Below are positions 15,132 to 24,075 of a stretch of 64,000 nucleotides of DNA, in pieces. The stretch comes from an uncultured virus (IMG/VR IMGVR_UViG_3300033112_000355). Lineage: Duplodnaviria; Heunggongvirae; Uroviricota; Caudoviricetes. Both the position numbers and the translations under genes were made by a program. The first letter of the stretch is position 1; each line of letters begins with the position of its first letter. The notes below the pieces were generated by a model. It did not search any database. It was not told the origin of the DNA and was given only the letters and a program-made list of their open reading frames with translations. The DNA is taken from the IMG/VR virus record IMGVR_UViG_3300033112_000355. One strand, given 5' to 3'.

Positions 15132-15377
15132 TCGAATTCGCCATAGCGTTCAGAGGGCTGGTCCGGGTGTGACTGGCCTTTTTTTTGTAAATTTTTATTT
15201 TTAAAACCGGGAAGTGGCCCGTATGGGGGCGATTTTTTGAAAATTATAATTTTTTTGAGAATCGAAATGTTAAGAAAAGGTAAAAAAGGCCCTATATAGG
15301 CCGATTTGGGAAAATATTCTGCTGATCCTTCTAGCAAGGGCTACATCTTTGCACAACCGAGAGGAAAAAAAAATAAT

Positions 15378-15568
15378 TGTGGATAAGTCTGTGGAGAACG
15401 GGGCGGGGCCTGGGGAAAACGGAGGGTGTCCTGTGGAGAACCAGGGTTGAGACGGGTGAGACCTGGGGAAAACCGGGGGAATGTGTGGGAATCCTGACAA
15501 TCACAGGGGAATTGTTAAGATTTCTTGCAGATATTCCTGTGGAAAACTACCGTTCTGGCTGTGGAAAA
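15378..15568 (-). repeat. Array of about 8 co-oriented DnaA-box-like 9-mers
   Basis: TGTGGATAA 15378 (perfect TTATCCACA on minus), TGTGGAGAA 15390/15432, TGGGGAAAA 15411/15464, TGTGGGAAT 15484, TGTGGAAAA 15538/15560. Confidence 0.65.
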
Positions 15569-15678
15569 CGCTGAGATCCATTGCGGCGCAAGGGATGTCG
15601 AAATTTAGGGGTAAGGGGCGGGCACTTACATCGGTGTGGTATGTATGCGCGTGCGTTCCTATGTCTCCCGTGGGGTGG

Positions 15679-15708
15679 TTGACGGTGGGGCTGTGGTGTG
15701 GTTAATAT
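15679..15708 (+). promoter_or_regulatory. sigma70-type early promoter P1
   Basis: TTGACG-18 bp-TAATAT. Confidence 0.55.
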
Positions 15709-15744
15709 GGATTCAACGGGGAGGCCACAGCCGCTCCGCCCAAC

Positions 15745-15773
15745 TAGACAAGGGCCACCAACCCTGCTACAGT
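15745..15773 (+). promoter_or_regulatory. sigma70-type early promoter P2 (extended -10)
   Basis: TAGACA-17 bp-TACAGT with TG at -15/-14. Confidence 0.6.
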
Positions 15774-15904
15774 TGAACCAAGCGAGACGGATCACCACTC
15801 CGNNNNNNNNNNNNNNNNNNNNNNNNNNNNNNNNNNNNNNNNNNNNNNNNNNNNNNNNNNNNNNNNNNNNNNNNNNNNNNNNNNNNNNNNNNNNNNNNNN
15901 NNTC

Positions 15905-15913
15905 TGCTACAGT
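15905..15913 (+). promoter_or_regulatory. Early promoter P3, extended -10 (-35 lost in gap)
   Basis: TGCTACAGT identical to the P2 -10 region. Confidence 0.5.
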
Positions 15914-15947
15914 CTTCACGGGAGGTCACCACCCTTCCACAGACACA

Positions 15948-15980
15948 GTGAGGTTCGCCTCGCACCTAGACAATTGCATA
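15948..15980 (+). promoter_or_regulatory. rrn-like antitermination signal (hairpin plus boxA-like sequence)
   Basis: GTGAGG-TTCG-CCTCGC hairpin followed by GCACCTAGACAATTGCATA, close to the cyanobacterial rrn boxA context GAACCTTGA(A/C)AACTGCATA. Confidence 0.55.
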
Positions 15981-15981
15981 A

Positions 15982-16161
15982 GAGTCCCGGCACCGACTGG
16001 CGGCAGGTAGGCAAAGCAGAGCCATCCACAGCACGGCCCGGAAGCGTGTGACAACGATCAGGGTGTCACAGCCAGGGGGAGACATCCTCTGTAGCCGAAA
16101 CGTAGTCTCTGACTGAGATGATGGTAGGTAAAGTGTGCGGAGTGGCAGCCGCAGCGGGCTC
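15982..16161 (+). ncRNA. Unclassified multi-stem structured leader RNA
   Basis: Closing stem GAG(T)CCCG/CGGGCTC; hairpins TGTGACA/TGTCACA, CAGGGGGA-GACA-TCCTCTG, TGCGG/CCGCA; loop-E-like CCGAAAC...GGTAGG. Confidence 0.5.
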
Positions 16162-16172
16162 ATAGATTCACC

Positions 16173-16222
16173 GATCCCGGTCCCAAGGGGGGACTGTGCA
16201 GGTTCGAGTCCTGCCGGGATCC
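16173..16222 (+). ncRNA. Minimal tRNA-like element (acceptor stem, one hairpin, T-arm)
   Basis: GATCCCG/CGGGATC stem, GTCCC/GGGAC hairpin, GCAGG-TTCGAGT-CCTGC T-arm; no D-arm, no CCA. Confidence 0.65.
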
Positions 16223-16259
16223 TTGGCAGCAGTAATGTTGCCATTGTTCTATCACCACT

Positions 16260-16919
16260 ATGAACATGTCAGAATTCGTTTCTGTTGATCCCAAGTTCTG
16301 GTATTGTCCTTCACTGTCAAGTGATGCACACATCTCAAAGACTTTAGGTGAACCAATCTCTCTCCCTGAGAGTATTGATTGCCACCACTGGGTAAGTGAT
16401 TGTGAAGATGAGTTATTAGCTCACTTCGCAGAACTTACCGGGGAATTGTATTCTTTCCACACTCGTGATAATACTTACAATTCAGAGAATGATTTTGACT
16501 CTGAATTTGTATTCACAATTGCTGCACCATGTGCGTCAGGTGATTACATTTATTGTCACGATGTTTTCGTCATTGTTGAGAAACATCTTGGCGGAGATGT
16601 TAGAGGAAACTATGGTCCTTTTGCGGTTTACCGTGTGGACAATTTAGGTGACACTGGTTTCTTTGATTGGACTTTGGGATGGTATGTTTCTCCTGTTAAT
16701 CAGGAGAGGGCACTTGATCAGATCGATACTAAAGAAATCGATTACCTAAATCAGCAGTTTTCTGCTGGGTATTCTTCTTTACCTACTTCACAAGTAAGGG
16801 ATCAATTATTAAACGGCGTTGAGCCTACTTGGAGTAAGCGCTTAAACTGTTTCGTTGCTCGCTTTGAGAATCTAGAGTTCGTCTGCCGTCTTGATGTTTG
16901 TGAACCTTACTATTGTTGA
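16260..16919 (+). CDS. Acidic early hypothetical protein
   Basis: 219 aa; HLGGDVRGNY motif; first gene after the leader. Confidence 0.6.
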   Translation: MNMSEFVSVDPKFWYCPSLSSDAHISKTLGEPISLPESIDCHHWVSDCEDELLAHFAELTGELYSFHTRDNTYNSENDFDSEFVFTIAAPCASGDYIYCHDVFVIVEKHLGGDVRGNYGPFAVYRVDNLGDTGFFDWTLGWYVSPVNQERALDQIDTKEIDYLNQQFSAGYSSLPTSQVRDQLLNGVEPTWSKRLNCFVARFENLEFVCRLDVCEPYYC

Positions 16920-16920
16920 T

Positions 16921-16985
16921 GTCGAAACTATCTCCTTCGGGAGATAGTCTCCGGGATTGGCATTCCCGGACTGATGAGACTGCCA
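16921..16985 (+). ncRNA. Type II hammerhead ribozyme (predicted cleavage after C16949)
   Basis: GTC-GAAA-CTATCTCC-TTCG-GGAGATAG-TC|TCCGGGA-TTGGCAT-TCCCGGA-CTGATGA-GAC; loop TGGCA can pair with 3' TGCCA. Confidence 0.93.
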
Positions 16986-17085
16986 NNNNNNNNNNNNNNN
17001 NNNNNNNNNNNNNNNNNNNNNNNNNNNNNNNNNNNNNNNNNNNNNNNNNNNNNNNNNNNNNNNNNNNNNNNNNNNNNNNNNNNNN

Positions 17086-17126
17086 TAGTCTCCGGGATTG
17101 GCATTCCCGGACTGATGAGACTGCCA
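17086..17126 (+). ncRNA. 3' part of an identical hammerhead after the gap (second copy or assembly overlap)
   Basis: 41 nt identical to 16945-16985. Confidence 0.6.
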
Positions 17127-17147
17127 CTGTTGTCTATCACCACTAAG

Positions 17148-17849
17148 ATGACTAAGTTCAAAGGCTATGTTTTACAGAGGATTTCTAGTCCTATTGATGG
17201 CAAACCCTTGGTCATAATCATGACCATGAAGAGTGCTAATCGCAAGACGAATAACATGTGCCAGATCTGGATCCTGCGAGAGGATGTTAATCCTGTCGAA
17301 GCCGTTGAATCTGGCGCTGACTTATCTATGTGCGGCTGGTGTTCACATAGGAAGAAAGATGATAGTTCACGTAGTTGCTATGTGAATCCAGGTCAAGCAC
17401 CTTTAGCCGTGTGGGAATCTTATCACCGTGGAATCTACGGTGAGTTAGATGACTTAACTCCTGACTTATTACAAGATCGTGAGGTTAGGTTTGGTGCTTT
17501 CGGTGATCCAGCAATGATGAGCCCTGTTATTGCACGGTGGATTGTTGACAACTGCAAGGCGCACACTGGTTACACTCATCAGTGGAAACGTGAATTTGCA
17601 GACTGGACTAAGGGATTGTTCATGGCTTCATGTGATCATTTCCAAGACTATTTGGACGCCAGTTCATTAGGTTGGAAATGTTTCAGTGTTATTCCTAAGG
17701 GTACAACTGCGAATCACATTGGCAAGTTGTGTCCTACAGAGGCAACAAACAGCCAGGCTACTTGCAAGACCTGTAAGTTATGCGATGGTGCCAAGACTGA
17801 TGTTTTCATTCCTGCTCATGGCAGGGGTGCAAAATACGTTAAGTTCTAA
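17148..17849 (+). CDS. Cys-rich phage protein, gp88/radical-SAM-like fold candidate
   Basis: SANRKT, CGWC, SCYV, VRFGAFGDP, TGYTHQW, CP...CxxCxxC...AHG motifs; ATG at 17148. Confidence 0.6.
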   Translation: MTKFKGYVLQRISSPIDGKPLVIIMTMKSANRKTNNMCQIWILREDVNPVEAVESGADLSMCGWCSHRKKDDSSRSCYVNPGQAPLAVWESYHRGIYGELDDLTPDLLQDREVRFGAFGDPAMMSPVIARWIVDNCKAHTGYTHQWKREFADWTKGLFMASCDHFQDYLDASSLGWKCFSVIPKGTTANHIGKLCPTEATNSQATCKTCKLCDGAKTDVFIPAHGRGAKYVKF

Positions 17850-17915
17850 GGCGAAACTATCTCCTTAGGGGGATAGTCCAGGGGATTGACATTCCCCTGC
17901 TGATGAGCCTGTCAA
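17849..17915 (+). ncRNA. Type II hammerhead ribozyme (predicted cleavage after C17878)
   Basis: AGGC-GAAA-CTATCTCC-TTAG-GGGGATAG-TC|CAGGGGA-TTGACAT-TCCCCTG-CTGATGA-GCCT; loop TTGACA can pair with 3' TGTCAA. Confidence 0.93.
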
Positions 17916-17952
17916 TTATCATCAGAAGTCACAAACATTATTCTTTCAAACC

Positions 17953-18324
17953 ATGCAAAACTACAGCATTCTTCGTGCTCTTAATGTTCTGAGCACAATG
18001 ATCCAAACCTCTTACAAACTCGGCTATGAGTTTGGTAAGTTCTACAGACAGCATCTACATCATCACGTTGTTTCTGCTGTGGCATTATTAATCACAGTCT
18101 GTGTTCACTTATGGGTGAACCGTCATCGATACATAAAGACCGTCGAGTCTTTGTTTGTATATCGATATGAACCTATGGTGAAGCTTGCACCTATCGTGCA
18201 TCCTCTCTATGCTTCCATGGAATCGCTCATGGATAAGACATCAAAGCAGCTCCGTTCCATCACTGGAATCAAGCGTAAGGTGTCTAAGGTGAGGATGGCT
18301 GGTCAGTATCTTTCAATGGTCTGA
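17953..18324 (+). CDS. Early membrane protein with a basic C-terminal helix pair
   Basis: One TM helix (VVSAVALLITVCVHLWV); C-terminal TSKQLRSITGIKRKVSK. Confidence 0.55.
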   Translation: MQNYSILRALNVLSTMIQTSYKLGYEFGKFYRQHLHHHVVSAVALLITVCVHLWVNRHRYIKTVESLFVYRYEPMVKLAPIVHPLYASMESLMDKTSKQLRSITGIKRKVSKVRMAGQYLSMV

Positions 18325-18334
18325 TCACCGGTAA

Positions 18335-18429
18335 CTGGGCCGCATCAGGGCTCGTCTGTGTGGTGCTTTCGTCCCCTGATTCTCTACGGCGTAAGACCCA
18401 GGTTCGGGAGATAGTTGCCCCTATCTCCC
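18335..18429 (+). ncRNA. Unclassified structured RNA after a stop codon
   Basis: Nested stems CTGGG/CCCAG, CCG/CGG, ATCAGGG/CCCTGAT, then 9-bp hairpin GGGAGATAG/CTATCTCCC. Confidence 0.45.
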
Positions 18430-18490
18430 CAGCATTTAATTCACGAGACTTAATCACCACTAAAGTCTCACCCATACATCAAATCAAACC

Positions 18491-18757
18491 ATGCTTAATT
18501 CATTTCGACTCGGTCAAAACAAATTTCTCACGTTGGATTCGTATCGTGAGGAAGATTACAACACAAACAGCATGAAACTTCACCACTATTTCTTATCAGT
18601 CATTGCTGGTATTGGGGTGGGCACATTACTAACAATTGCAGCTCAAAAAGAGATCAACAAAAGGGTAGAGACTAGGTGCTATGGTCCAGCGGATCAGATT
18701 GTATCTATCCGTTCTTTCATGGGCACTGTTAAGTTCTGCGTTAAGGGGACCAACTGA
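18491..18757 (+). CDS. Small membrane protein
   Basis: TM helix SVIAGIGVGTLLTIAA. Confidence 0.5.
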   Translation: MLNSFRLGQNKFLTLDSYREEDYNTNSMKLHHYFLSVIAGIGVGTLLTIAAQKEINKRVETRCYGPADQIVSIRSFMGTVKFCVKGTN

Positions 18758-19044
18758 TGAACCGAATTGAACGCATCAAATCCCTGATCAATGAAGCTGG
18801 GTCACGGTATGTTTCTGTCACCTTCATTAAGAAGGATGGCAGTGAACGTCAGATGACATTCAATCCTAAGGATGTGAATGACATCAAGGGCACAGGTGAC
18901 ACCAGTAAAGTTGATCCAAATATCTTCCGTGTTCGTGAGAACGCCCAGCAAGCATGGAAGTCATTCGATGCACGTCGTGTGCTCAGAATCAAATCCCAAG
19001 GTAGAACAACGGAGTTCAATGATGAAGAAAACAACCCCCTATGA
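18757..19044 (+). CDS. SH3-like beta-barrel (WYL_2/DUF2693-like) protein
   Basis: VSVTFIKKDGSERQM...AWKSFD signature. Confidence 0.65.
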   Translation: MNRIERIKSLINEAGSRYVSVTFIKKDGSERQMTFNPKDVNDIKGTGDTSKVDPNIFRVRENAQQAWKSFDARRVLRIKSQGRTTEFNDEENNPL

Positions 19045-19266
19045 CTGGACGCCCTCACTGATCCTGATAGGTTGCACAGTGCTGTTCCCTGGCCCTGGCT
19101 TCCTGATCGGTGGCATTGCCTTCTGTGCCTATGTGCTGCTGAAGGCTTTGCTCTTCCCTCCTGCCGCTGATACGGAAGGGGGGAGGGATCACAAGTCTGG
19201 TGAACAGTCCAAACAGAACAGACCATTGCTTCCCAAACCAAGACCAACGATCACCCGTAACGACTC

Positions 19267-19669
19267 ATGAACAATTATTATTCACTGCTAACTGCAAAAG
19301 ACACATCATGGATGGCCGATGATGAATCACCATTCAGGTTTCCAATAAGCTTCAAGGGGATTCCGTTTGTCCACTGTGAGCTAAGGAATTTCAAGCGTAG
19401 CTCTCTGAAGAAATTAGTGAGGCCAGTGGTAGAGAATCCAAAACTATACATACCCTCTGAGACCGGAAGAAAGTGTCTAATTTTTTCAGAATGTAGTTCT
19501 AAATCGATCTCTGTGCGAGCTAAGTTCAATTGGCAGATGCAACAGTGTATCGACAAGTGGCATAAACATGCGGAAGGTTTGGGCTGTGATGACCAACGCC
19601 CTTACCTTCGTTTGTTTGACGATTCATTGGCAAGTCTTTTCCCCCGTCCACACACAGCAGGTAAATCAT
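19267..19669 (+). CDS. Hypothetical protein (truncated by gap)
   Basis: Open frame running into the N gap. Confidence 0.45.
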
Positions 19670-23986: not shown

Positions 23987-24075
23987 GGGAGCGTGCTGGA
24001 ATTGGTAGACAGAACGGACTTAAAATCCGTCGAGCTGTAAAGCTCATGCGGGTTCAAGTCCCGCCGCTCCTACCA
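23987..24075 (+). tRNA. trnL-UAA: tRNA-Leu(UAA), long variable arm, CCA encoded
   Basis: GGGAGCG/CGCTCCT acceptor, ACGGA-CTTAAAA-TCCGT anticodon arm, GCGGG-TTCAAGT-CCCGC T-arm. Confidence 0.96.

Follow-up and report, generated by a model that had tools for sequence, protein, structure and literature searches.

The early genes of phage T7 are transcribed by the host RNA polymerase as one polycistronic RNA, which RNase III cuts at each gene border at long hairpins, leaving the hairpins at the message ends. The tRNA punctuation model of animal mitochondria is a related case from an organelle. In plant mitochondria, tRNA-like t-elements mark the ends of mRNAs (Forner et al. 2007, PMC1920247). In 2011, Perreault et al. 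(PMC3088659) reported prophages in which multiple hammerhead ribozymes flank single genes or small gene blocks; they proposed that the ribozymes process phage transcripts into gene-length mRNAs, and polycistronic constructs of about 2 kb were cleaved in vitro and in E. coli. Theta ribozymes, which are similar to those of the hepatitis delta virus (HDV), adjoin phage tRNAs and serve tRNA maturation (PMC10879173). In the present study, we analyzed a stretch of 64,000 nucleotides (nt) from an uncultured virus (IMG/VR record IMGVR_UViG_3300033112_000355), the whole of which is called the window below. Its early operon contains type II hammerheads at the first gene junctions and an anticodon-less tRNA-like fold ahead of the first gene. 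The initial annotation had suggested that the phage makes one antiterminated early transcript and cuts it into separate mRNAs by self-cleavage and tRNA-mimic processing. The folds, their conservation and their positions support the cutting as the best reading of the operon, and we consider it probable that one polycistronic early transcript is cut into single-gene messages in this way; the antitermination part found no support.

The window phage is, as judged from its sequence, an S-EIV1-like marine cyanophage. Between its terminase and that of Synechococcus phage S-EIV1, identity is 78%, as against at most 25% for every other record, and the large terminase, portal-like, tail-fibre, DNA polymerase and primase proteins encoded in the window mark the stretch as phage DNA. 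The window contains four 100-N runs, and two of them lie inside the region described here (15803-15902 and 16986-17085). Related contigs with the same operon, from IMG/VR and metagenomes, were gathered via the neighbouring structural proteins and gene 3, and the window and 16 related loci (numbered with the prefix L) were scanned for the hammerhead pattern. A blastn search of 50,697 phage records with 15903-16985 and 17087-19660, queries that jointly leave out 15679-15902 and the N run 16986-17085, gave no match, and searches of viral contigs with the exact hammerhead string and with gene 2 gave nothing usable.

Two hammerheads of type II were found on the + strand, one after gene 1 (16920-16985, predicted cut after C16949) and one after gene 2 (17849-17917, predicted cut after C17878), the latter with the pseudoknot UGACA/UGUCA, not UGGCA/UGCCA. 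A third, near-identical copy, which the initial annotation did not list, is readable in its 3' 41 nt (17086-17126, +, predicted cut after C17090), and its 5' half reads N. The first matched the Rfam family Hammerhead_II (RF02276) at 16920-16988 with 38.3 bits (gathering threshold, 37), and four copies in relatives scored 37.7-40 bits. With a covariance model built from 30 related copies, the scores in the operon were 88, 83 and 36 bits, the third match (17080-17130) having an E value of 1.9e-6, and no hammerhead beyond these three was found in the 64-kb window. The Rfam and model matches bear out the two hammerheads already annotated after genes 1 and 2, and the predicted cuts agree with the 5' ends expected there (16950 and 17879).

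We collected 37 hammerhead copies, 30 of them distinct; two come from the window, and the other 35 are spread over 15 of the 16 related loci, the short locus L030 having none. The core (CUGAUGA, GAAA and the GUC triplet) is invariant in the 30 distinct copies. In their alignment, 99.4% of 690 cells pair and 12 of 23 pairs show compensatory change, spread over all four helices; in slid controls, where the pairing partners were moved by one to three columns, at most 44.6% paired. Stems II, III and I are paired in 100%, 100% and 99.5% of cells with one, four and five compensatory pairs, respectively. The pseudoknot between loop I and the 3' tail (five pairs, 98% paired) has two, its variants being UGGCA/UGCCA, UGACA/UGUCA and UGGUA/UACCA. 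The start of the hammerhead falls between -2 and +8 nt from the stop codon of the upstream frame in 37 of 37 copies, and between 0 and 4 nt in 31 of them. These observations indicate that the operon hammerheads are ordinary, complete type II hammerheads, placed on the coding strand at gene borders, for which self-cleavage is predicted.

The arrays of Perreault et al. (PMC3088659) share with ours the ribozyme type with its pseudoknot, the placement on the coding strand around genes, and the proposed role. Their example flanks an anti-restriction gene, whereas here the ribozymes flank small early genes of unknown function. The present arrays also differ in that they belong to a lytic-type cyanophage lineage from marine metagenomes and are confined to promoter-proximal cassettes. 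In addition, most copies are fused to a conserved hairpin of the 5' untranslated region (5'-UTR), and the slot they occupy is shared with folds other than hammerheads in relatives (comparison with PMC3088659).

The second kind of element is the anticodon-less tRNA-like fold at 16173-16222 (+), which lies between the leader and gene 1. It consists of a 7-bp acceptor stem (16173-79 / 16215-21), a D-like mini hairpin of 15 nt (16180-94) whose loop keeps GG, a 3-nt linker, and a T arm (16198-16214) with a 5-bp stem and the loop UUCGAGU closed by a G-C pair; an unpaired C, the discriminator C16222, follows the acceptor stem. The minimum-energy fold of the single sequence reproduces exactly this shape (z -3.0; none of 200 shuffles was as stable), and the z value for the counterpart in L019 is -4.2. 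The T loops in relatives, also closed by G-C, are UUCGAGU, UUCGAAU and UUCGAUU (UUCGANU). Compensatory changes among five sequences were seen in three of seven acceptor pairs, two of five T-stem pairs and one of five pairs of the mini hairpin, and the versions in L019 and L022 have very different sequences with the same fold. The element occupies the position between leader and first gene in the window, L014/L025, L028, L019 and L022, that is, in every lineage that reaches there. A minimal tRNA-like element with its 5' end at 16173, as first annotated, is therefore upheld by both the reproduced fold and its covariation in relatives.

The element is not a cloverleaf, as there is no anticodon arm and the 15-nt hairpin stands in place of the D and anticodon arms. 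ARAGORN called no tRNA at 16173-16222, and the Rfam tRNA model gave no match at E up to 10 in 15300-19300; the only tRNA that ARAGORN reported in the window is a tRNA-Leu at 23987. The origin of the fold as an integration scar was ruled out by the presence and covariation of both acceptor strands, and a Plastid-ycf2 match in Rfam on its minus strand (21.8 bits, E 0.39) is at chance level. With its acceptor stem and T arm and its location at a message border, the fold is a candidate processing signal of the t-element kind. Like the t-elements (PMC1920247), it is a tRNA-shaped, non-decoding fold at an mRNA border for which cutting by RNase P and RNase Z is proposed. It differs from them in occurring in a phage, once in each operon and always between leader and first gene, and in combination with ribozymes; cutting at t-elements was mapped in plants (PMC1920247), and at the phage element it is predicted.

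From the observed folds, conservation, covariation and positions, we infer all cleavages, the enzymes involved and the effects on expression as follows. The host RNA polymerase would start at two or three tandem promoters and make one long early transcript, in which the fold at 16173-16222 would be taken for a pre-tRNA. RNase P would cut before G16173 and release a leader of roughly 250-390 nt, and a 3' tRNA-trimming enzyme of the RNase Z type would cut after C16222. The gene 1 message would then start with the hairpin UGGCAGC-AGUAAU-GUUGCCA (16224-16243, +), its predicted 5' end, in which two of seven pairs are compensatory and UGGCA pairs with UGCCA as in the hammerhead pseudoknot. Self-cleavage of the type II hammerheads would occur after C16949, C17090 and C17878. 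Upstream of each cut, the message would finish with the stem III hairpin and a cyclic phosphate, a few bases beyond the stop codon; downstream, the next message would open with a 5'-OH and the stem I hairpin. The products would be single-gene messages with protected ends, most of them with a UCACCAC-loop hairpin immediately ahead of the AUG, and their stability and translation may differ from gene to gene. As in T7, one early polycistronic RNA would be cut at gene borders to give messages with hairpin ends; T7 relies on a double-strand-specific enzyme of the host, whereas here the cutting would reside in the RNA itself or in borrowed tRNA-processing enzymes.

We regard the cutting as the best reading because all junction elements are on the coding strand at gene borders, their pairs are maintained by compensatory change, no convincing terminator was found, and the cutting of comparable arrays has been published. 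The comparison of element order and structure across related contigs, which the initial annotation had offered as a check, showed folds kept by compensatory change and elements located at gene borders. Several observations weigh on the other side. The Rfam match of the second hammerhead (17849-17917) reaches 31.1 bits (E 0.0015 in a 4-kb search), below the gathering threshold of 37. The covariation support for the tRNA-like fold is modest, since the five sequences form essentially two lineages, and the fold lacks a 3' CCA and has a C at position -1. In 42 kb examined of the cultured relative S-EIV1, we found no hammerhead, T-loop, J5 loop (J5 being the folded RNA after gene 3 described below) or hairpin cluster, so the elements are not required by S-EIV1-type phages in general. 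No RNA-type sequencing runs on record were listed with 17087-19660. Finally, the genes between the repeated junction modules differ among phages, which makes a role in crossover at the DNA level possible.

This last point leads to another explanation, namely that the modules are mainly DNA repeats for swapping early gene cassettes by homologous recombination, with RNA cutting secondary or vestigial. The genes between modules belong to clusters g12, g8, g18, g17, g29, g26, g27, g31 and g32, which occur in different orders in different contigs, and the block from gene 2 onward is stable; the presence of two near-identical hammerheads just 141 nt apart in the window is also in its favour. However, a pure DNA repeat would preserve neither RNA pairs by compensatory change nor an invariant catalytic core, and it would not be confined to the coding strand or lie flush with stop codons. 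We therefore consider this explanation unlikely.

The interval of 141 nt between the cuts predicted after C16949 and C17090 deserves a separate comment. The two near-identical hammerheads that bound it (window 16950-17090) are too close together for an ordinary gene, and most of the interval reads N. Given such cut-site spacing, the pair could excise a small RNA. Its ends, a 5'-OH and a cyclic phosphate, would be joined by a host ligase, and the resulting circle would have its own function. Circular or spliced products are raised as a possibility by Perreault et al. (PMC3088659), who report that they could not detect them. So short an interval is also unmatched in the relatives; the shortest one there, of about 410 nt, has a gene inside it. 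An excised circle therefore seems to us extremely improbable.

Upstream of the tRNA-like fold lies a non-coding leader with a conserved core (15964-16172, +). The core is identical at 177 of 208 positions (85%) to that of L014 and at 172 of 208 (83%) to that of L028, and the flanking promoter region is less conserved. The structure of the leader of about 180 nt that had been annotated was not confirmed: the fold of the core is no more stable than those of shuffled sequences (z +0.43). Covariation is nearly nil, with three distinct sequences, too few to judge. A search with two motifs for further copies of the leader returned two viral contigs already in our set, and none in prokaryote genomes. 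Rfam searches with the leader, a second type of leader and the J5 and B folds (see below) gave no match at E cut-offs of 10 or 1, and a c4-a1b1 match of 17 bits is at chance level.

It is conceivable, though we do not favour the idea, that the operon yields the leader as a first product in its own right. RNase P would form the 3' end of this small non-coding RNA by cutting at the tRNA-like fold, and the RNA would act on the phage or the host. This possibility is compatible with the proposed cutting of the transcript and extends it. Analogous ends made by RNase P are known from MALAT1/mascRNA and from the C4 and CI RNAs of phages P1 and P4. The leader is driven by tandem promoters, and its nucleotide identity of 85% and 83% exceeds the 59% amino acid identity of the protein of the neighbouring gene 2. 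It has no conserved open frame, the frames found there falling in different clusters in each lineage, and an unrelated leader of about 400 nt, near-identical in L019 and L022, likewise ends in a tRNA-like fold. On the other hand, the fold is no more stable than shuffles, there is no Rfam family, only three distinct sequences are available, and 58-77% of shuffles equal the leader's best pairing with the UCACCAC hairpins, which is chance level. A hint from RNAalifold that the leader might be antisense to these hairpins was rejected, as 54-93% of shuffled leaders paired equally well. The C4 RNA of P1/P7 and the CI RNA of P4 are short and act as antisense regulators on targets proven to lie in their own transcript. 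The window leader would resemble them in that RNase P, acting at a tRNA-like fold, would free it from the transcript of a phage operon, and it differs from them in that no target pairing above chance was found. As for the second leader type, the near-identical pair extends over about 1000-1398 in L019 and about 1200-1595 in L022, is unrelated to the window leader, matches no Rfam family and has at its end the tRNA-like fold in a covarying version.

After gene 3, at the place where another folded RNA had been annotated, we found a structure designated J5 (18335-18433, +), which is made up of a branched domain (18335-18401) and a covarying hairpin (18402-18433). Together with a third hairpin (18447-18467), it is common to 12 distinct sequences, in whose alignment pairing reaches 95.9% of cells, against at most 52% in slid controls, and compensatory change is seen at 15 of 39 pairs. 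Its invariant parts are a 16-nt loop, CUGUGUGGUGCUUUCG, and the joining strand UUCUCUACRGCGUAAG, in which one purine position varies. The single-sequence fold (z +0.21) would not have revealed this structure by itself. In relatives, a slot at a gene border may hold either a hammerhead or a Y-shaped fold, here called B, with the overall architecture of the tRNA-like element. The B fold was seen in L014 (3306-3375 and 3748-3817), in L021 (410-479) and at the start of L016, in the slot where other contigs have a hammerhead. It consists of a 5-bp closing stem and two hairpins with no unpaired junction bases, and it is followed by a UGGCA/UGCCA hairpin and a UCACCAC hairpin, as is the tRNA-like fold. 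Its z values are -4.1 and -3.6; the four copies are almost identical, which leaves no covariation to judge.

The UCACCAC hairpins are a feature that the initial annotation did not list. The window has 15 TCACCAC words; six of them are on the + strand within 15792-18586, and five of those six are in hairpin loops, two just after the -10 boxes of promoters P2 and P3 (described below) and three just before the starts of genes 1, 2 and 4. The first two are CGGA-UCACCAC-UCCG (15788-15802, +), directly after P2 and abutting the N run, and GGGAGG-UCACCAC-CCUUCC (15920-15938, +), the predicted 5' end of the P3 transcript. Of the other three, one with the loop AUCACCACU (16245-16266, +) has a stem ending in the A of the gene 1 start codon, one with the same loop (17129-17152, +) includes the start codon of gene 2 in its stem, and one with the loop AAUCACCACUA (18447-18467, +), the third hairpin of the J5 alignment, lies 24 nt ahead of the start of gene 4. 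When all loci are taken together, a flanking stem of at least 4 bp is present in 37 of 42 distinct UCACCAC contexts, as compared with 26% of shuffled flanks, and the stem sequences differ. The hairpin stands immediately before the AUG after the hammerheads, after the tRNA-like fold and after B, and about 24 nt before the AUG in the case of J5; the hammerhead ahead of gene 3 is the exception among the copies, most of which are fused to this 5'-UTR hairpin. Its recurrence right before start codons points to translation or message stability, and it is probably a shared recognition site for some factor.

A broader view is that the slots at gene borders take interchangeable RNA modules (hammerhead, anticodon-less tRNA, B and J5), that B and J5 are processing elements of undescribed kinds, and that the UCACCAC hairpin is a new shared control signal, possibly read by the GUGGUG of the invariant J5 loop in a loop-loop contact. 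In such a scheme, B and J5 may be new self-cleaving RNAs or new substrates of tRNA-processing enzymes; they are candidates by the same guilt-by-association logic that led to earlier ribozyme classes. The GUGGUG is the one complement in the operon to the UCACCAC hairpin loop. This pairing is only a lead, because 9-10% of shuffles pair as well, and we regard the scheme as a whole as rather doubtful.

The putative early promoters were located by consensus scans. P1 (15679-15708, +; TTGACG, 18 nt, TAATAT) keeps both hexamers with a variable spacer in L014, L028, L019 and L022. P2 (15745-15773, +; TAGACA, 17 nt, TACAGT, with TG ahead of the -10) corresponds in four other lineages to TTGACA/TTGACG ... 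TACGAT/TAAGAT, again with conserved hexamers and varying spacers. Both have the -35 and -10 hexamers of sigma-70-type promoters at a spacing of 16-18 nt and are retained in relatives. A possible P3 is represented by TGCTACAGT (15905-15913, +), an extended -10-like box with TG, whose -35 region falls in the N run 15803-15902. Of the three tandem sigma70 promoters first annotated, two are thus conserved, and for the third only the -10 with TG can be read; as the relatives carry two to five tandem TGCTAnnnT boxes, three tandem promoters are plausible.

The antitermination part of the initial annotation relied on a hairpin with a boxA-like signal downstream of these promoters, which would load an antitermination complex, letting RNA synthesis pass terminators ahead of the cutting of the early transcript. 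Hairpins are indeed present, one being the UCACCAC hairpin at 15920-15938 and another, with a UUCG loop, being read from the sequence and the alignment at 15948-15963 (+; absent in L014). Hairpins that share the loop UCACCAC and have covarying stems closely follow the promoters in five lineages: all seven promoter-proximal TCAYCAC sites have stems of at least 4 bp with differing sequences, and the counterparts of the hairpin at 15788-15802 have other stems (CGGG/CCCG, GCAGG/CCUGC). Nut-type hairpins occupy the same position just after a promoter. The boxA, however, did not hold up, as the best matches in the readable stretch had 4-5 mismatches of 13 to the rrn boxA and 2 of 8 to the lambda boxA, which is chance level; a rough hand estimate gives about 3 such rrn boxA sites by chance. 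Nor were there convincing terminators to override between the promoters and gene 4, where the 6 terminator-like sites compare with an expectation of 3.4 +/- 2.2 and all lack a real U run. Moreover, the same UCACCAC hairpin recurs directly before start codons, and general family scans, which were not aimed at N- or Q-like proteins, gave no such protein. Antitermination of the early transcript is, in our judgement, very unlikely.

Genes 1, 2 and 3 are open frames on the + strand in the order originally listed. Gene 1 (16266-16919, +) encodes 217 amino acids (aa) from its second ATG and has no family match. Of its two in-frame ATGs, six bases apart (16260-16268), the first is AAG in relatives, so translation more likely begins at the second (16266), with which the UTR hairpin ends. 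Gene 2 (17148-17849, +; 233 aa, phrog_2554, unknown function) is 59% identical to its homologue in L011 and had no match in Pfam, NCBIfam or PDB. Its protein is cysteine-rich, and tblastn found homologues with about 38-41% identity in 151 phage records, among them phages of Mycobacterium, Klebsiella, Gordonia, Microcystis and Roseobacter; one record is labelled anti-restriction protein. Gene 3 (17953-18324, +) encodes 123 aa (phrog_3587, unknown function), and gene 4 (18491-18757, +) is the first of a tightly packed block. Protein family scans of genes 1-4 returned only PHROGs of unknown function. In a map of 16 sources, junction elements occur solely near the promoters, in the part whose gene content varies between contigs; none was found from gene 4 onward, where neighbouring genes abut or overlap.

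Two further features of the window are mentioned here. Five of its 11 matches to TGTGGRNAA cluster on one strand at 15378-15568 (+), just upstream of the early promoters, and a similar cluster is present in L014, L019, L022 and L028. The reverse complement of this motif resembles DnaA boxes (TTATCCACA-like), and the cluster may be a replication origin or a control region dependent on host DnaA. The tRNA-Leu(UAA) gene mentioned above has a long variable arm (23987-24075, +) and scores 56.3 bits in Rfam, in agreement with ARAGORN.

The initial annotation considered that the combined architecture may be undescribed. The clustering of hammerheads around single phage genes and the idea of mRNA processing were published in 2011; full-text literature searches gave, among the titles listed, no paper on a phage operon in which hammerheads go together with a tRNA mimic. 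The hammerhead layout is therefore a known one, and its mixture with other RNA folds is an unusual variant. As with the theta ribozymes, small self-cleaving ribozymes and tRNA-shaped RNAs occur together in phage transcripts; the theta ribozymes belong to another class and stand beside real tRNAs, not serving message separation (PMC10879173).

The function of bacterial and phage hammerheads is still largely argued from gene context, and the present lineage offers a compact case. A single operon has a ribozyme and a tRNA mimic for what seems to be the same job, in at least 15 related contigs and with cut sites predictable to the base. The UCACCAC hairpin may also show how marine cyanobacteria handle messages without a Shine-Dalgarno sequence. 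Engineers flank guide RNAs with ribozymes or with tRNAs to release them. If the proposed cutting is true, this would be a natural operon with both, and phages would use the engineers' release design too.

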